Virus genome (UHGV): UHGV-0179107
DNA from: a virus
DNA length: 13,840 nt
Direction: 5' to 3' (one strand)
The notes under the pieces were generated by a model. It had not been told where the DNA came from and searched no databases. It saw only the letters and a program-made list of their open reading frames with translations. The translations under genes and the position numbers were made by a program. Shown here in pieces: positions 2,480-9,919 of the stretch. Each line of letters starts with the position of its first letter. The stretch's first letter is position 1.

Positions 2480-3397
2480 TTATTTATCAAGTAAAACCAT
2501 CTTGCCCTCTCTTAAGCGGCAATTTTGCCATGCTGGGAAGGGGTTCAATAAATCTCCGGGATTGGCTTCAGTGTCCACAATAATTTCTATCCCTTCGTTT
2601 TCTTTTAATAGATTTGCTAGACGAAAGGCTTGATCAGTAAGATGCCAATATTTAGCAGAATTCATTATTTTGCCATCAATGGTGCCTTTAATATTTTTCA
2701 TCACCTCATAGCCATAGATTTCATCACGCAATACGCTAAGTTTTACCCTTCCTTTACCTTTATATTTAGCTTTAGCTGCCAGATATGCCGCCTTTGCTTC
2801 AGAATTCGTCAGAACTGGATAACCGTAAAAATCTTTCTCACGTTTGCCAGCGTCTCTACGGCGTTCTCTGCGTTCTTTTTTAGGTTGGGAAGGGGATTGC
2901 ATTGCCTCGGGCTTTTCAGGCTGCTGTGCGGCTTGTTTTGGGGCTTCCTGAGGCTGTTCTACTTTAGCGGCAGTCTTTCCGAAAGTCTCTAAGATGCCTT
3001 CTGGAATATTTACGCCCTTCTCGATGCACATATCCAACAATTGATCAGGGGTTTTCAGCAATTCGTAATGATTAGATTTGCCTTTTTTAACAATTGAAAT
3101 AAGCCCAGCATTTTCAAGAGATTTAATAGCGCTGGCTATTTTCCCGCGATCCTTTCTGAGTTGAGTTGCCAGTTTTTGCTCTGAAATATAAATTCCCTCA
3201 CCGTTAAAATGAAAGCCCACCATTTTTCCATAAATTAACATTTCAAAGTCTGTTAAATAAAAGCGCTCTTTAACTGTTCCCGTCTTTTTATTAGAGATTG
3301 TTGTTGCTACCGGTTTATCAAAATCATACTGAATAAAGAAATCGAAAGAGGGGGTAAAAGGTGCCCCCAGTCTATTTCCTGCCATAATTTCCCCCAT
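2480..3397 (-). CDS. Putative iteron-binding replication initiator / replisome organiser (305 aa): N-terminal winged-helix domain, Q/P/E/K-rich linker, C-terminal domain
   Basis: ORF track. The N-terminal domain (KERFYLTDFEMLIYGKMVGFHF...ISEQKLATQL...AIKSLENAGLISIVKKGKSNHYEL) has the winged-helix layout of lambda-O / phage replisome-organiser type proteins, followed by a basic low-complexity linker (KKERRERRRDAGKREKD). ATG 3397 overlaps the TAA of the upstream paralog; an alternative start at 3385 gives matching MA-N N-termini in both paralogs. Confidence 0.65.
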   Translation of the reverse strand: MGEIMAGNRLGAPFTPSFDFFIQYDFDKPVATTISNKKTGTVKERFYLTDFEMLIYGKMVGFHFNGEGIYISEQKLATQLRKDRGKIASAIKSLENAGLISIVKKGKSNHYELLKTPDQLLDMCIEKGVNIPEGILETFGKTAAKVEQPQEAPKQAAQQPEKPEAMQSPSQPKKERRERRRDAGKREKDFYGYPVLTNSEAKAAYLAAKAKYKGKGRVKLSVLRDEIYGYEVMKNIKGTIDGKIMNSAKYWHLTDQAFRLANLLKENEGIEIIVDTEANPGDLLNPFPAWQNCRLREGKMVLLDK

Positions 3398-3783
3398 TAA
3401 TATATAAAATATTCTCTAATACCCTGCTCATCGCACATCTTGCCAAGCTGATCAGGGGTAATTAGCAATTCGTAGATATTCGATTTGCCCTGTTCTCGTT
3501 TAACGTTTATCAGACCTGCAGCTTCTAATGTTTTGATTGCCGACCTTACTGTTTTCTCTGTAACATCATAATCGTCTGCTAATGTCTGCGTCGAAAGCTC
3601 TGAGATAATTATTTCTTCACCCTCCTTAAAAGAATAACTTACCATTTCACCATAAATTGTTACCTCCAACAAATTTAAGTGAAATCTTTCTTTATTGGTT
3701 GCAGTTTTTGCAATCGGATTTTTAAAAGTGTATTTGATGAAACGTTTAAAAATGGGAGTAAAATTTTCATCGTTGTTTGCCAT
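3397..3783 (-). CDS. Truncated paralog of the adjacent initiator (about 128 aa): winged-helix DNA-binding domain only
   Basis: Clear paralogy with the N-terminus of the 305-aa protein (NFTPIFKRFIKYTF vs PFTPSFDFFIQYDF; GKSNIYELLITPDQLGKMCDEQG vs GKSNHYELLKTPDQLLDMCIEKG). The track start at 3798 is a TTG that overlaps the SD; ATG 3783-3781 with GGAGG 8 nt upstream is the likely start. Confidence 0.65.
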   Translation of the reverse strand: MANNDENFTPIFKRFIKYTFKNPIAKTATNKERFHLNLLEVTIYGEMVSYSFKEGEEIIISELSTQTLADDYDVTEKTVRSAIKTLEAAGLINVKREQGKSNIYELLITPDQLGKMCDEQGIREYFIY

Positions 3784-3807
3784 AATATGATCCTCCAAGA
3801 TTATTTA

Positions 3808-4017: not shown

Positions 4018-4138
4018 AATGAGGCCTCCTATAATTCGAATCAGAATGATATACGGTTAAAAAGAAACGGGAACTAATAGCTCCCGCCAGTTAATTAAGG
4101 AAATCCACTATGATGACTTAGTGTATCCCTATGCTTTA

Positions 4139-4489: not shown

Positions 4490-4801
4490 GGCCCACAACA
4501 TGCCTTCCTGCAGAAGGTTTGATTTTAATCAAATCCACGAAGTGGACCACAGGAGGGAGAGCACTTTTTGCCTTAGGCGCTCTAAAATCAATTCTAACGC
4601 GATTTAGAGGTCAGGTAATGCAATTGCACTACTCACCACAGTTAATGCAGCCAGAAGGCCATTTAGGGGCCCTATTTTTGATTTATGAGTGTCATATTAC
4701 GTGCATGCACGCGCGGGAGACTCTTTGCTGCCTCCTTCCGGCGCTGGCAAGCTTTCGGCAGCGGTCCACATTGTGGGCCTCATGCTGACGCATTCGCCGG
4801 A

Positions 4802-4963
4802 CCCACACAGACCCGAAGGGCTTAGCCATGGGCTAAGGTGCCGTAGGCACTCCCACACACAATTGGGTGACGTGTCATGTATGGAATACATTGTCACCCC
4901 ACACACAGGCCGACGTAGTCGGTTTAGCTGTATAGCTAAAGTCACAAAGTGACCCACACACAG
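4802..4963 (+). repeat. Array of about 50-bp units, each beginning with CCCACACACAG and containing different short perfect palindromes
   Basis: Punctuation motif at 4802, 4852, 4898 and 4954. Palindromes: CTTAGCC-ATG-GGCTAAG (4821-4837), GTGCC-GTA-GGCAC (4838-4850), GGGTGAC...GTCACCC (4865-4899), CCGAC-GTA-GTCGG (4910-4922), TTAGCT-GTAT-AGCTAA (4924-4939), GTCAC-AAA-GTGAC (4941-4953). Confidence 0.6.
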
Positions 4964-4966
4964 ATT

Positions 4967-5003
4967 GCCTAAAGAGTCGCTCATGCTCTTTAGGCTTTCA
5001 TTT
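4967..5003 (+). terminator. Candidate intrinsic terminator closing the hairpin array
   Basis: Perfect 10-bp stem GCCTAAAGAG / CTCTTTAGGC (4967-4976 and 4986-4995) with a 9-nt loop, followed by TTTCATTT. The minus-strand side has no U-tract. Confidence 0.4.
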
Positions 5004-5124
5004 GTGGGTTAAGCTTTTCCCTTAGAAAACCTTCCCCACTCTCTGATCCCTCCCCATCCCCCCTTGTTGGGGGATTATAGGGGGAGTTCTTTTTATTGAT
5101 CTATTCTCTTTATCTATTAGTGTG

Positions 5125-5270
5125 GGAAATCCCAGCATATATATGTAGGAAATTCCCGCATATATATGTTGGAAATACCAGCATATCCCTTTCTGTGTAT
5201 GGTTGAATATGCGGGAAATTCCAGCATATCGATCCCTATGCATGTGGGAACATGTGGGAAATACCGACAG
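5125..5270. repeat. Iteron array, candidate replication origin: GGAAAT-N-CC-(A/C)-GCATAT repeats
   Basis: Four 16-bp copies at 5125-5140, 5148-5163, 5171-5186 and 5214-5229. The first three are spaced exactly 23 bp (about two helical turns), the fourth is 43 bp further. Degenerate copies follow (tandem CATGTGGGAA x2 at 5241-5260; GGAAATACCGACAG at 5257-5270; GGAAATATGCAGATC at 5403-5417). Confidence 0.55.
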
Positions 5271-6332
5271 GTCTGTGTGGCTTAATTTGACTTGATATTG
5301 ACTAACAAAGGCCTTCGTAGAAGGTTTGAGATGAGCTCAAATCACCATATGTGACTAACAAACCTCTCTCCTCTCTCTTTGCTTTGATTTTCTCTCATGT
5401 GTGGGAAATATGCAGATCAACACCCTTTGATTTTATCGACAGGTATGTTGACACGCCCTACGGTTGTGAGGCCCGGGCATCATAAGTATGGCCCCTGGGG
5501 CAGTCCATCCTTCCCTCACACAGGACAATGAATACACTCCTTGCAGTCATGAATACATAAAGAACATGAAAGACTGTTCACACCAACACGCCGATAAATT
5601 GCCTGAAGAGGCTTACATGGTGGGATTGTTGTGTGGGTAATAGTGATCATGCTAACAGATTATGTTAATCAGATGTAAATTCCGATTTTGTGGTCTGCAG
5701 ATAGCAAACTATACTGGTTAGATGATCAGGGGAATGACTACAAAACAATCAAAAATGTGGGATATAGACATCTATACTTCTAATGTGCTGTGTGGGGTGT
5801 TAGTGCGTCCTAACCTCTAAGTCATTGATTTTAAGTGTTGGGAGAGATGCATTTAACATAATAGATCTTATCTACACTAATAAAGCGCACTACAAAATCT
5901 GATTTAAAAATCATGATAAGGAGGCCCAGAATTTACGTACAGTCACCTGAATAAATAATGTGCACAACATACAGCAAAGCTTAAGAATTAACATAATAGC
6001 AACGTGGTCAGTAGTGGTGTGATATTTGAGAATTGTTAGAAGAAAAAAGGGAGGTGGGGGAGCGCCTGCCTGGCACCTCAGACGAACATCTGACGGGTAT
6101 TAATACCGCTAATGGATATTTCTGACACCCACACCCAAGACCGCTTTCAGCACATAGCCATACACCGCACAGGATGCAATTGTGATAACAAAAAATGGGG
6201 GTGTAATAGGGTAGGCTGTCTTTCATCAAAATCACTTCTACGACGTTACCAGAGTGATAACAAGAAAACAGGCCTCTAAGATTATCTGTGCCTCGTTTTT
6301 AGCTTTTTGTGTGGTTACCAGGTGAAGAGGAA

Positions 6333-6571: not shown

Positions 6572-6697
6572 ATTAAATCAATAAATAGGCATTAAATACC
6601 CATTAAATACCCCTTAAATAGGGGTTAATTGCTCAGGACTGAAAGGAGTGTAAATAGGGGATAAATAGGGGTTAATTGAGGGATAAATAAAAAGGGG
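6572..6697. repeat. AT-rich direct-repeat cluster: TAAATAGGGGTTAATTG x2 plus shorter TAAATAGG and ATTAAAT copies
   Basis: 17-mer at 6615-6631 and 6662-6678 (47 bp apart); TAAATAGGGG at 6651-6660; TAAATAGG at 6582-6589; ATTAAAT at 6572, 6591 and 6603. Lies just beyond the terminator of the membrane-protein operon. Confidence 0.55.
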
Positions 6698-6718: not shown

Positions 6719-7237
6719 TCAGAACAGTTTTTTGCTTTTTCTCCAACTAACGCCGCGTTTGCCTATGCTCAGCCAGCCGCCAGCGAATCGGGTACCTGCG
6801 GTAACACTAGCTCCCCTGGTGCCTACATGTGCATAAATACCTGCCCCACTGCTACCACCGCTTCTACGGCTTTTTCCGCCATCGATATCGAGGAGAGCAC
6901 AGATTGCACCCCACAAAAAGCCAACCAACCAATATACATATGCTAAGCCTAAAACACCCCAGGTTACCGCCCACCCCTCTAGACTAGTGGGGAAGTAGAA
7001 AGCATTGAGAACAGCATTTATAGGACGGATCAGGAGAGAATCTATAAAACCAATATCCACATGAAACGGGCCATCACCGAACTTGCTACTGCCAATAAAC
7101 AAGGTAGCAGGGTAAAAACAGATAGCCATTAACCAAGGCCCGGCTATCAAAAACGCTGCAGTGTACTGAAAGAACATTTTTACCAGTTCTTTAAAAAGCC
7201 TTTTATTTACTGATTCTTTGTCTTTCTGGAATAACAT
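6719..7237 (-). CDS. Membrane protein (172 aa) with two predicted transmembrane helices and a Gly/Ser/Arg-rich C-terminal tail
   Basis: ORF track. Hydrophobic segments FFQYTAAFLIAGPWLMAICFYPATLFI and WAVTWGVLGLAYVYWLVGFLWGAICALL; tail GKSRRSGGSSGAGIYAHVGTRGAS...SWRKSKK. A purine-rich SD-like stretch precedes ATG 7237. No family recognised. Confidence 0.65.
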   Translation of the reverse strand: MLFQKDKESVNKRLFKELVKMFFQYTAAFLIAGPWLMAICFYPATLFIGSSKFGDGPFHVDIGFIDSLLIRPINAVLNAFYFPTSLEGWAVTWGVLGLAYVYWLVGFLWGAICALLDIDGGKSRRSGGSSGAGIYAHVGTRGASVTAGTRFAGGWLSIGKRGVSWRKSKKLF

Positions 7238-7294
7238 AGCGGTACCCCTTTGCGAGAAGTTGAATTTAGTTAATAACCTGTTGGACCGTTTACA

Positions 7295-7555
7295 TTACTT
7301 AGCTTTCTTGAATCTCCCGTCCTCCTTTCTTTCGATATTGTGGTAGTCGGCATAGGCTTTCAGCCTTCTGTGCACGGTGGCTATCCCCACACCGAAGGTT
7401 TTAGCAATAACCTGTCGTGGTGTTCCCTCCTCGACCATCTTAAACATCTGTGCCGCTACATCCATTTGTGCGGCTATCTCCATTTGCTTTGCCTTTGCTT
7501 TAACTTCAGCTATCAGCTCTTCCCTCAGTCTCCTGATATCTTTAGCCCCCGTCAT
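7295..7555 (-). CDS. Small DNA-binding protein (86 aa): N-terminal coiled coil, C-terminal resolvase/Hin-type HTH
   Basis: ORF track. The segment TPRQVIAKTFGVGIATVHRRLKAY fits the resolvase-type HTH pattern (IA...GV...TV.R.L). GAGGAG precedes ATG 7555-7553. Confidence 0.6.
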   Translation of the reverse strand: MTGAKDIRRLREELIAEVKAKAKQMEIAAQMDVAAQMFKMVEEGTPRQVIAKTFGVGIATVHRRLKAYADYHNIERKEDGRFKKAK

Positions 7556-7597
7556 AAACTCCTCTCAATGCTGTTCATAAACTCATCTCAATGATGA
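7552..7597. repeat. Tandem 23-bp duplication spanning the RBS and start codon of the HTH gene
   Basis: Plus strand TCATAAACTCCTCTCAATGCTGT (7552-7574) and TCATAAACTCATCTCAATGATGA (7575-7597). On the minus strand the upstream copy creates an 8-codon uORF (MNSIERSL) whose TGA overlaps the HTH start codon. Confidence 0.6.
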
Positions 7598-7656
7598 TTA
7601 ATACAAAATCTAAGACTACCAGACCTATTAAAAATGCTTTGCCTCCTTTGCCCATC

Positions 7657-7779
7657 TCATACCTCCACACACAGAGCTAACATCAGGGCTAACACTCCAA
7701 CCACCTCAATTGCCTTAACCATGTGTGGGTGATGAAACCTAGCCTTTTGCCATGCGCTGGCACTGTTCTTGATACCCAT
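7657..7779 (-). CDS. Possible small hydrophobic peptide (40 aa), below the ORF-track cutoff
   Basis: Hand translation: MGIKNSASAWQKARFHHPHMVKAIEVVGVLALMLALCVEV. Its 5-prime leader shares a 15-mer (plus-strand TTTGCGAGAAGTTGA at 7791-7805 and 7249-7263), within a roughly 26-nt homologous region, with the leader of the membrane-protein gene. Confidence 0.3.
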   Translation of the reverse strand: MGIKNSASAWQKARFHHPHMVKAIEVVGVLALMLALCVEV

Positions 7780-8016
7780 ATCTATAACCTTTTGCGAGAA
7801 GTTGATTTGTTTGCTCGGTTGGGTGCTATCAATGCTCCCCTTCCTTGATTCGAACTATAGCCGGGTAAATCCCCGGAAAACATTGATATTGATCAAAAGA
7901 TATCTATCACGAATGAAAAAGTTATGATAGATGCTATGAGATGACGTATTGATGGGATTGATAGAGGTCTGAAAATACCGTTACCACGCTAATTATTAGA
8001 ATTTATATAATCAGGG

Positions 8017-8047
8017 TGTTGACAATTTGAGAGAATACTGATATAAT
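8017..8047 (+). promoter_or_regulatory. Consensus sigma70 promoter upstream of the capsid genes
   Basis: TTGACA (8019-8024), 17-nt spacer, TATAAT (8042-8047), with an AT-rich UP-like tract upstream (7985-8015). The 14-mer TGTTGACAATTTGA (8017-8030) is identical to the reverse complement of 4157-4170. Confidence 0.6.
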
Positions 8048-8190
8048 ATACATATACACCGTAAATCTTTGGTGAAAGTGATTTGCCGTATTTTCCTCCA
8101 AAGTAAAGGCGACCAGGTAGCGGTGCCGCCTTATAAATAACACTACCCTGATCATCGTTGAGTGGTCGATTAATTCTCCTATTGGGCTAG

Positions 8191-8199
8191 TTATCCACA
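8191..8199 (+). promoter_or_regulatory. Perfect DnaA-box consensus TTATCCACA in the capsid leader
   Basis: Exact 9-mer seen directly. It overlaps the left arm of an 8-bp inverted repeat CCACACAG / CTGTGTGG (8195-8202 and 8221-8228). Only one copy, so a chance match is possible. Confidence 0.3.
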
Positions 8200-8366
8200 C
8201 AGTTTTCTTTTGCGGGTTTTCTGTGTGGGTAGCTATCCCGAAAGGTATTTCCCCGCTGATGTGACCGCAGCCTGAACTGATTCGGGGGAGTGCCTTTCGT
8301 GATAGTGCTCTCAAGCAACCGTAACCATGTGCTATCAGCCAACTTTGTTGGTTTTCCTCATGTGGA

Positions 8367-8396
8367 ATAGCCCCCGCTTGGACGGTGCGGGGCTAT
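8367..8396 (+). terminator. Terminator-like or attenuator hairpin in the capsid leader
   Basis: ATAGCCCC(C)GC / GCGGGGCTAT stem with one bulged C and a 9-nt loop, followed by a pyrimidine-rich but imperfect U-tract (CTCCCTCTTCTTAT). Lies between the promoter and the first capsid-module gene. Confidence 0.3.
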
Positions 8397-8525
8397 CTCC
8401 CTCTTCTTATATCAATCTCCCTTTTAATAGATTTCCGGCATAACTTTTCGGCCCGAGCCTGTCGTAGTTCTAGAGGTTATGCCGGAACTCTTTGAGGGGA
8501 GTTAATTTAAATCGCAGGTGATCAA

Positions 8526-8861
8526 ATGAGAGATATGACTATCCGCACACGCGGACACATCATTTCATACGCCGCAGATGAGCAATTCTCTATTCGTGAC
8601 GTGGAAGTGAAAAATAAAGTTAAGGCTGAGATCCCGGCCGGCACTGTTGTTGTGGTGACTGAGGCTGGCGAGGTTGAGACCTTCGTTAAAGCAACGCACA
8701 CCGGTAAAACTCCGCTGCTGGTTGTAGAACGTGCTGAGGTTGGTGATGCTTTTATCGTTGTTGCCAACAAAGGCTGTTATATCAATCCGGCCTACGTGGA
8801 TAAAGACGGCTTAGCCGCTGTTATCGCTGCCAGCAATGGCGATCTGCGTGTTGCACAATAA
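8526..8861 (+). CDS. Putative head decoration or accessory capsid protein (111 aa), immediately upstream of the major capsid gene
   Basis: ORF track; AGGTG 5 nt upstream of ATG 8526. Codon usage looks typical of highly expressed genes. Position and size parallel lambda D relative to E, but no direct sequence similarity was recognised, so the product call is positional. Confidence 0.55.
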   Translation: MRDMTIRTRGHIISYAADEQFSIRDVEVKNKVKAEIPAGTVVVVTEAGEVETFVKATHTGKTPLLVVERAEVGDAFIVVANKGCYINPAYVDKDGLAAVIAASNGDLRVAQ

Positions 8862-8872
8862 GGAGGTTGAAG

Positions 8873-9919
8873 ATGGCTAAAAAAGAATTCGAAGTTCGCG
8901 ATCTGTGTGGTCTGATTAAAGACATCCCGCTGGATAACCAGATTATTTCAGCAATGGATATCTTTAACACTACTGCTCTGTGCAATACCTTTAAATTTGA
9001 ATATGACAAAGTCCGCCAGGTGAAACAAACCGCTTTCGGTCAGTATCCGCGCTACGGTGAACAGATGGCGACCATTACCGCAGATGAGCGTGAAACGGGC
9101 ACGGGTGATATGGCATTCACTGCCGCATCCAGTGCTATTTATCCTTCTGACTGGCAGGGTATTCGTGTTCCGGGCAAAGATTCCGAAGAGAATTTAGAGT
9201 CTGTTACCGCTCGGCGTGTTATTCAGTTGGGTGAAGGCTTACGCCAGACCCATGAAGAAGCACGCCAGCTTGCTCTCTTTGAGAACAAAATTATCCTCAC
9301 CAAGGGTAAAGAACTGAATGTGTGCGAACTGCTGGGCGCACAGCAAACCACCTCGGAAGTGGATTTAGCTAAAGATATCCTTAAACAGCTGCAGGACCTG
9401 GTTGCACTGAGCAAGATTAAACAGCGTGGTGTCGTTCGCGCTCTTCGTGGTTTCACCCTGTTCTGCCGTGCTGAGCTCTTTGCTGCAATTCAGACTGATG
9501 AACTGTTGAGAAAAGTGCTGTTGTTCGGCAATCAGAATATTACCGACAAAGGTCTGATGTTCCCTGAGGATATTCTGCCGGGCTTCCCGACCTTCCGCAT
9601 TCCGGGCTTAGCCCTGCGTGTGGTGCAAATGGATAGTCTGCCAGAGAATACTGCTTATCTGGTCCCACAATTCCAGCCACATGCGTTAGGCGATATGGTG
9701 GGCGTTTATACTCAATTTTTCGGCCCTTGCGCTCGCAACTTGAAGCTTGCAAACGGCGCTGCACGTGAAGCTTTCATGTATATGGAAGAGTCCAGAGGTA
9801 AACGAGAAATCTTCATTGAATCCTCTTATGCTTTCATGAACATGATGCCTGAGGTTGTGGTTAAAGTGAGTGTTAGTAACTCCGCCGCCGCTGCTCTGGC
9901 AAAAGCCAAGGCTAAATAA
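8873..9919 (+). CDS. Major capsid protein, lambda gpE-like family (348 aa from ATG 8873)
   Basis: Track start 8867 is a TTG; ATG 8873 has a perfect AGGAGG 6 nt upstream. Size and the C-terminal LPENTAYLVP segment parallel lambda gpE (341 aa; LPDNTMVLG), recalled from memory. Confidence 0.8.
   Translation: MAKKEFEVRDLCGLIKDIPLDNQIISAMDIFNTTALCNTFKFEYDKVRQVKQTAFGQYPRYGEQMATITADERETGTGDMAFTAASSAIYPSDWQGIRVPGKDSEENLESVTARRVIQLGEGLRQTHEEARQLALFENKIILTKGKELNVCELLGAQQTTSEVDLAKDILKQLQDLVALSKIKQRGVVRALRGFTLFCRAELFAAIQTDELLRKVLLFGNQNITDKGLMFPEDILPGFPTFRIPGLALRVVQMDSLPENTAYLVPQFQPHALGDMVGVYTQFFGPCARNLKLANGAAREAFMYMEESRGKREIFIESSYAFMNMMPEVVVKVSVSNSAAAALAKAKAK

Follow-up and report, generated by a model that had tools for sequence, protein, structure and literature searches.

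A conserved, structured leader RNA ahead of the capsid genes in small Escherichia coli plasmids with rV5-like structural genes

What becomes of a transcript that starts at a consensus promoter and has almost half a kilobase of gene-free DNA ahead of it before the first capsid gene? The question is raised by positions 8,048 to 8,525 of UHGV virus genome UHGV-0179107, a stretch of 13,840 nucleotides (nt) referred to here as the window. A first-pass annotation, made from the sequence alone, had read this leader either as a late promoter with a downstream terminator that needs antitermination, after the pattern of lambda PR'/tR', or as a regulatory leader RNA. The second phrasing was the better of the two. 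The leader is a conserved, structured, non-coding RNA of the + strand, to a degree far beyond chance, and at its centre lies a 203-nt core that shows covariation. The element that carries it is a small E. coli plasmid, probably a satellite of rV5-like virulent myophages to judge by its gene content. As for what the RNA does, antitermination is the best available mechanism, and it is only partly supported.

The promoter had been described as perfect in its -35 and -10 boxes, and it is: the promoter scan scores the hexamers 12/12 at 17-bp spacing, and a TG at 8039-8040 makes the -10 an extended one, TGATATAAT (8039-8047). Transcription is predicted to start at about A8054. This is the sole promoter-like site within 7500-9000, and the same scan found no second promoter between the terminator-type hairpin of the leader (hairpin T, Table 1) and the ATG at 8526. 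The promoter is conserved in all three lineages of relatives described below, lineage C having TAAAAT as its -10. From promoter to capsid ATG the gap is about 470 nt, close to the roughly 480 nt without an open reading frame (ORF) first proposed. Nine ORFs of at least 20 amino acids (aa) overlap 8040-8530, seven of them inside the leader, and none keeps its frame in the other lineages. Stop-to-stop frames differ among the lineages, and there is no conserved leader ORF.

Related leaders were gathered from RefSeq, PLSDB, Logan, and NCBI draft and metagenome contigs. In a search with the 611 bases surrounding the leader, only small E. coli plasmids matched: seven in RefSeq, 13.2-13.7 kb in size and 92-99% identical to the query, and also five in PLSDB, with zero matches among 50,697 phage records. 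The leaders sort into three lineages, carried by E. coli plasmids of 13-14 kb. Lineage A comprises the window and most of the others, including a sub-lineage, A3; lineage B is GCA_033262085; in lineage C, the major capsid protein (MCP) is 82% identical to that of the window and the homologue of the 111-aa protein encoded just before it is 65-68% identical. Protein searches with these two recovered only E. coli plasmids, at identities of at least 82% (MCP) and at least 65% (111-aa protein), and BLAST with the lineage C leader added nothing new. Scans for relatives of the RNA gave three additional lineage A copies in metagenomes, zero matches among species-representative genomes and, by exact pattern in viral contigs, one chance match inside a coding region.

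All lineages share one plan. Its 5' part consists of TTGACA, 17 nt, a TG-extended -10, a variable 5' segment and a core of 199-211 nt; its 3' part consists of a spacer, a stable hairpin, a pyrimidine-rich tract, a long hairpin, the Shine-Dalgarno (SD) sequence and the ATG. Within lineage A, core diversity is 0.036-0.067 per site, equal to that of the best-conserved stretches of the adjacent genes and without their third-position pattern. Variability is far higher in the first 25 transcribed bases and in 8419-8518. Hairpin H2 and the linker that follows it are the only part that BLAST recovers when lineages A and C are compared.

The leader was folded and its stems were followed through the relatives, as the first-pass annotation had proposed; hairpins and stems are retained there through compensatory and G-U changes. 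Folded as RNA, the + strand from about 8054 to 8528 reaches -171.5 kcal/mol (z = -6.29), and none of 100 shuffles is as stable. The homologous leader of lineage C gives z = -6.6, the opposite strand of the window leader -2.55. G-U pairs make up 26 of the 150 pairs in the fold. This asymmetry, together with the G-U pairs, indicates that the structure belongs to the + strand RNA.

The core is made of H2, a linker and two further hairpins, H3 and H4 (Table 1). The H2 loop is invariant in 18 of 18 distinct sequences, and one G-C pair of the H2 stem becomes C-G in lineage C. The linker is either single-stranded or pairs through CUACCC (8143-8148) with GGGUAG (8227-8232), an alternative six-pair helix that is 100% paired and in which three pairs change on one side only. 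H3 carries a conserved UUUGCGGAUUU-type sequence in its apical loop, and its apex, CACACAG/CUGUGUG, turns into CAUGCAG with G-U pairs in A3 and into CCGC/GCGG in C. H4 is paired in 100% of cells; four of its pairs change on both sides, and its distal half has been wholly re-written in lineages B and C with pairing retained. Just downstream of the core, the hairpin at 8338-8352 varies within lineage A from CCAAC/GUUGG to CCGAC/GUCGG, a compensatory change, and lineage C has an unstructured pyrimidine-rich stretch in place of the small hairpins of 8300-8352. Many one-sided changes preserve pairs as G-U, a kind of pairing open only to the + strand RNA.

Covariation was scored on an alignment of 18 distinct core sequences under two hand-drawn models. 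Standard pairs fill 92.6-93.3% of the core pair cells, versus 34-51% when partners are slid by 1-3 columns, and the covariation score is 0.19 versus at most 0.087 in the slid controls; not one shuffle out of 500 equals either value. The invariant GGUAGC of the H2 loop is complementary to an equally invariant GCUAUC at 8232-8237. Neither site shows any variation; the pairing could be a switch or a tertiary contact. With a covariance model of the core (R1), each plasmid gives a single match, at 153-245 bits; there is no other copy, and MaxTheCat (MZ501094), the rV5-like myophage (Vequintavirinae) compared with the plasmid here, has none.

Table 1. Features of the leader and of the genes encoded in the window. 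Positions are those of the window.
Feature	Position	Strand	Description
Sigma-70 promoter	8019-8047	+	-35 TTGACA 8019-8024, 17-nt spacer, -10 TATAAT 8042-8047
Variable 5' transcript segment	8054-8103	+	Local hairpin 8067-8103 (minimum free energy, MFE, fold); sequence differs among sub-lineages
Conserved RNA core (H2, linker, H3, H4)	8104-8306	+	203 nt; 199-211 nt across lineages
Hairpin H2	8106-8132	+	7-nt loop AGGUAGC 8115-8121
Linker	8131-8148	+	U.AUAAAUAACACU then ACCC; invariant alignment columns
Long hairpin H3	8184-8239	+	18 pairs, 1 mismatch; 95.5% of cells paired
Hairpin H4	8233-8306	+	Core 8240-8298; possible extension CUAUC (8233-8237):GAUAG (8302-8306)
Spacer, two small hairpins	8300-8337 and 8338-8352	+	In lineages A and B
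Terminator-type hairpin T	8364-8400	+	-21 kcal/mol; starts at +311 from the predicted start
C/U-rich, G-poor tract	8397-8433	+	45 nt from 8400: C 13, G 3
Long 3' hairpin H8	8409-8503	+	Base conserved; apex accepts insertions of 66-100 nt
Shine-Dalgarno and start codon	8516-8522 and 8526-8528	+	AGGTGAT and ATG; annotated coding sequence in relatives
111-aa protein	8526-8861	+	First capsid-module gene
Major capsid protein (MCP)	8873-9919	+	PHROG 29, E = 6e-21
Dit-like "tail tube initiator"			Encoded in the window; 51% identity to MaxTheCat counterpart
152-aa protein			Encoded in the window; 45% identity to a structural-region protein of MaxTheCat
Tape-measure protein			Encoded in the window; 25% identity to MaxTheCat counterpart
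Rep-like winged-helix proteins (two)	2480-3397 and 3397-3798	-	Pfam/PHROG scans
Helix-turn-helix protein			Encoded in the window; 86 aa

Could the conserved feature be the DNA itself, a replication or packaging site that uses a DnaA box, CCACACA boxes and GCTATC repeats? The perfect DnaA box that had been noted at 8191-8199, TTATCCACA, is indeed exact, and it is the sole exact copy in the window. The same position reads TTATCCATG, TTATCCATA and TATCTACCC in other lineages, and it sits in the 5' strand of H3, where the stem pairing is kept and the sequence is not. As a functional site or origin the box was rejected, being unconserved and lying inside a covarying RNA stem, and the match is best put down to chance. 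It overlaps one of the CCACACA motifs that are frequent in the plasmid. The 8-bp inverted repeat CCACACAG (8195-8202) / CTGTGTGG (8221-8228) is likewise present and is only the top of H3, not a separate site. Some motif counts do agree with a function at the DNA level: CCACACAS occurs 12 times in the plasmid versus 0.46 expected, both arms of H3 included; CCACACA occurs seven times versus 0.9 expected in a gene-free region of the rV5-like phage; and GCTATC occurs 19 times versus 6.8 expected, three times in the leader. However, the DnaA and CCACACA boxes are lost in A3, B and C with base pairing retained through G-U and compensatory changes, folding is strongly strand-asymmetric, and a likely iteron-type origin lies elsewhere, at 5121-5278. 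A DNA-level element is thus very improbable here.

The repeated motifs have a distribution of their own. CCACACA(S) is over-represented in gene-free DNA of the plasmid, at 4800-6310, 7665-7730 and 8195-8228 of the window, and the phage region rich in CCACACA is a gene-free stretch of 2.5 kb, positions 90051-92584 of MaxTheCat. Short hairpin modules, ACCCGAAGGGC and GGTGCCGTAGGCAC, stand between the boxes at 4810-4960, like those of the phage gene-free region. Motif and modules together may be a replication or packaging signal shared by plasmid and phage. The GCTATC count of 19 is reached by 0 of 200 shuffles; eight same-strand copies fall within 7143-8397 (+), and the cluster is not clearly preserved in lineage C.

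Beyond the core, each lineage has a stable hairpin, T, that starts at +306 to +337 and folds at -19 to -21 kcal/mol. A terminator-like hairpin had been drawn at 8367-8396; it exists, is best drawn as 8364-8400, and holds its position in all lineages. The interior of its stem, GCCCCCGC/GCGGGGC, becomes GCCUCUCC/GGAGGGGC in B and CUCC/GGGG in C, the changes being compensatory. In lineage C, the hairpin has 15 pairs and a U7-9 tail, and the terminator scan calls it as a canonical intrinsic terminator. In the window, the tail CTCCCTCTTCTTAT is C/U-rich and fails the T-run rule of that scan, and hairpin T, followed by CUCCCUCUUCUU, is not called. Since the window hairpin has no U-run, efficient intrinsic termination is doubtful here. 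The C-rich untranslated tract that follows is a possible Rho loading site. When the nascent RNA is folded, forming hairpin T gains about 14 kcal/mol in each lineage, and no conserved helix that competes for its 5' strand was found. Terminator/antiterminator refolding in the style of a riboswitch was rejected for want of such a competitor. The gain in energy and the lack of a conserved competing helix make "hairpin formed" the default state, and regulated read-through would therefore need a factor acting in trans.

The current thinking, to which we give a probability of roughly 45%, is that a constitutive promoter is combined with a leader-terminator gate that is opened by a factor from the helper phage, the leader serving as a cis-acting regulatory RNA. 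Host RNA polymerase would initiate constitutively at the TG-extended consensus promoter, at about 8054, and would make an RNA of about 350 nt that contains the 203-nt core and then the stable hairpin 8364-8400. While the plasmid is alone in the cell, most transcripts would end at or just past hairpin T, and expression of the capsid genes would thus stay low. Lineage C would terminate intrinsically; termination in the window would probably be weakly intrinsic and/or Rho-dependent, in the C-rich tract. Upon infection by a helper, probably an rV5-like myophage, a helper-made factor would act via the conserved core, which would be the sensing or recruiting part, and read-through would then reach the decoration-like and capsid genes. 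We infer both termination and antitermination from the anatomy of the leader, and termination looks weak in this plasmid.

Control after initiation is the economical explanation, because the host polymerase should always use a promoter of this kind. Expressing virion genes without a helper would be wasteful, and this favours a gate. Control at initiation is less likely in view of the promoters of rV5 itself: they are sigma-70-like, 11 of them have extended -10 boxes, and some precede morphogenesis genes (PMC3606486). A putative "late" motif of this phage, gTGGTAAAATA, is itself an extended -10 (PMC3606486), and promoters P051 and P074 read TTGACAAT...TGrTAAAAT (PMC3606486, Table S4). Both strong promoters of the plasmid resemble this P051/P074 form, TTGACAAT..TGrTAAAAT, and they match the "late" motif because that motif is an extended -10 box. 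As a special signal of the plasmid, the "late" motif TGGTAAAATA was rejected, its total count being at chance level. A string resembling the late promoters of T4, TATAAATA, lies in the invariant linker; with two copies in the window versus 0.8 expected it is not significant, and it reads AATAAATA in lineage C.

Several points weigh against the gate. The hairpin of the window and of lineages A and B has no U-run and fails the terminator scan, and read-through past it may be high as it is. The Pfam and PHROG scans of 19 ORFs revealed no antiterminator gene in the plasmid, and none is known from rV5-like phages. The core alignment spans three or four independent lineages only, so its covariation statistics rest on few events, and two models of 8143-8306 fit equally well, one with the long H3 and the other with CUACCC:GGGUAG and an H4 extended by CUAUC:GAUAG. 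Lastly, a core of 200 nt far exceeds protein-recruiting sites such as nut, and a stand-alone RNA would fit it equally well.

Such an RNA, abundant, constitutive, about 350 nt long, ended by the hairpin and acting in trans, is a serious rival, and one that we hold possible while leaning away from it. It might bind or titrate a protein of the plasmid, the host or the helper, or pair with a helper transcript, and read-through into the capsid genes would be secondary. The very strong promoter, the large, conserved and covarying core and the invariant H2 loop and linker all suit such a role; so does the canonical terminator that bounds a discrete RNA in lineage C, and known cis antitermination sites are less elaborate than this core. 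A target is harder to find: elsewhere in the plasmid, no stretch longer than 12-14 nt is complementary to the leader, and the MaxTheCat genome contains no complementary target for the conserved core. Nor did the viral, species-representative, metagenome and covariance-model scans find a second copy or homologue of leader or core elsewhere. The operon fused downstream of the RNA is the same in every case, and the capsid genes have no promoter of their own.

The last part of the leader, between hairpin T and the ATG, suggests another role, in which the leader would act on the capsid mRNA once it is made, at the level of its translation or its stability. For example, UGAUCAUC (8149-8156) would mask the ribosome site GGUGAUCA (8517-8524), or processing at the hairpin 8409-8503 would give a stable 5' end. 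The MFE fold of the window does pair 8149-8156 with the SD region, and in all lineages a large hairpin with a conserved base, H8, stands just 5' of the SD. The pairing is not conserved, however, and as a long-range anti-SD element it was rejected: by eye, the SD side changes from GAUCA to GAUGA in lineage B without compensation, and no such pairing is predicted in lineage C. Control of this kind would also leave the conserved core and hairpin T unexplained, and we regard it as distinctly unlikely, less so than the DNA-level element and more so than a stand-alone RNA.

H8 accounts for one more repeat that had been listed, a 10-bp inverted repeat at 8434-8443 / 8477-8486. It is present, and it is part of a larger helix, belonging to 16-nt arms (8429-8444 / 8476-8491) within the hairpin 8409-8503. 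Insertions into the H8 apex, at the site homologous to window 8445-8475, occur in lineages B and A3. The lineage B insertion includes 29 nt (L024, 2406-2434) that match the gene-free region of MaxTheCat at 90909-90937 with 93% identity, and the A3 insertion (L026, about 2400-2470) resembles MaxTheCat 92548-92570.

Does the leader then resemble any system already described? The proposed likeness to lambda PR'/tR' holds for the architecture and could not be shown for the parts. The order of promoter, leader and hairpin is conserved in three lineages, with a canonical terminator in lineage C. As in lambda PR'-6S-tR'-Q, a strong constitutive promoter precedes an untranslated leader, a terminator closes the leader ahead of the virion structural genes, and read-through is presumably needed to reach them. 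Unlike lambda, the plasmid has no Q gene, and neither sequence nor structure matches. The annotation had seen no Q-like antiterminator in the window; this was borne out by the Pfam and PHROG scans, in which none of the 19 window ORFs belongs to a Q, N or other antiterminator family. No conserved Q-binding element or promoter-proximal pause signal is identifiable across the lineages. By eye, -10-like hexamers occur early in the transcript in A2 (TATAGT) and C (TATAAT), and the window has no good one; this early transcribed region is the most variable part of the leader. The lambda 6S leader is 194 nt long, whereas the plasmid leader measures about 350 nt to its hairpin, contains the covarying 203-nt core and ends, in the window, in a weak terminator. 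A virulent helper phage would presumably supply the activator.

Immunity of the satellite P4 involves a constitutive promoter, PLE, a CI RNA encoded in the leader, and premature termination, and related RNAs are C4 of P1 and P7 and CA of N15. The common ground is a satellite or plasmid operon silenced by constitutive transcripts that terminate in a structured leader. However, the leader described here does not match the C4/CI family (Rfam RF01695) even at E <= 10. It has no long complementarities of the seqA/B/C type, only the 6-nt GGUAGC:GCUAUC, and the controlled operon is a capsid module rather than replication or antirepressor genes.

The lambda nut boxA/boxB sites, HK022 put and Bacillus EAR are also conserved structured RNAs near a promoter and upstream of terminators, in operons through which polymerase has to read. 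A boxA-like string, UGCUCUCAAGCAA at 8305-8317, agrees by eye with boxA (CGCUCUUA / UGCUCUUUAACAA) at 10 of 13 positions in lineage A; this is within chance, the string is absent in lineage C, and the candidate was rejected. No boxB-like pentaloop hairpin was seen after it. Compared with put and EAR, the plasmid core is 2-3 times larger, and it has no Rfam match. Indeed, cmscan with Rfam 15 at gathering thresholds gave zero matches anywhere in the window, and permissive searches (E <= 10 on 7950-8560; E <= 5 on lineages B and C) gave only chance-level matches to miRNA and other families. The best match of a leader type was mgtC_leader, with 15.3 bits versus a gathering score of 48 (E = 2.3).

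ToxI-like RNAs consist of tandem repeat units of about 36 nt upstream of a terminator and a toxin gene. ToxIN, a type III toxin-antitoxin system whose terminator is leaky, has a strong promoter, a non-coding RNA, a terminator and a protein gene in line, as the plasmid does. The leader differs in that the 20 largest direct-repeat families listed include no tandem RNA repeats in 8048-8525, and the downstream genes encode capsid proteins, not an endoribonuclease.

Under the gate, then, control would be of a known kind, carried by an RNA without described relatives. A bolder and more doubtful proposal is that the 203-nt core represents a new class of structured RNA, the infection sensor of an undescribed plasmid satellite of virulent rV5-like myophages. 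Made constitutively, it would bind something produced by the helper (protein, small molecule or modified RNA polymerase) and so turn on the capsid genes; alternatively, its action would be in trans and directed against the helper. If the gate model is right, the leader is the control point at which a plasmid-type phage satellite times its capsid production, and it would offer a compact, testable case of infection sensing by a parasite of a virulent phage. The few phage-related regulatory RNAs would also gain a new structured motif whose promoter, core and terminator are defined. In a wider context, the capsid, tape-measure and tail-tube-initiator genes of these plasmids are divergent copies of rV5-like ones, and short DNA modules are common to the plasmids and the gene-free region of the phage.

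The plasmid is probably a satellite of rV5-like virulent myophages because it carries divergent rV5-like structural genes and none for terminase, portal or protease was found in the window. Its MCP is 24% identical to that of MaxTheCat over 325 aa, and the gene for the 111-aa protein occupies the position of the head decoration gene in that phage. With its 13.8 kb, the window has the size of these E. coli plasmids. It appears to be a whole plasmid linearised within the tape-measure gene, because a frame of 710 aa spans the junction. No account of these 13-14 kb plasmids was found in the searchable literature, and the element itself appears to be undescribed. NZ_CP043822.1 (39,610 bp) is a head-to-tail trimer of the plasmid with three copies of the leader region, and in a draft contig (L012, NTNY01000053.1, 30,105 bp) the element is joined to aph (streptomycin), transposase and tetR-type genes. 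These two records indicate that the element can exist as a multimer or a cointegrate.

The layout of promoter, terminator and gene is used twice in the plasmid, in the capsid operon and in a minus-strand rep/tail operon. The second promoter (4168->4140, minus strand) reads TTGACA, 17 nt, TG-TAAAAT, scores 11/12; its likeness to the leader promoter extends over 46 nt. A terminator-like hairpin with a T-run (4088->4066) follows some 50 nt downstream, before the first rep/tail gene. A further promoter-like site lies at 4359->4331, also on the minus strand. A 32-nt inverted repeat, 84% complementary, has one arm just past the rep gene (2437-2468) and the other in the leader of the rep operon (4088-4119), beside its terminator hairpin; a single minus-strand transcript would include the two arms. 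The two adjacent Rep-like genes are paralogous, with 71% identity in a 73-nt stretch (3015-3087 vs 3422-3494). Five iteron-like direct repeats of 23-26 nt (TGTGGGAAATCCCAGCATAT...), spaced by 23 and 43 nt, occupy 5121-5278 and are likely to be the replication origin on which the Rep-like proteins act. Directly 3' of a gene for a 172-aa protein, a cluster of repeats with 11-nt spacing, TAAATAGGGG / TAAATACCCC (6582-6689), may serve as a partition or protein-binding array.

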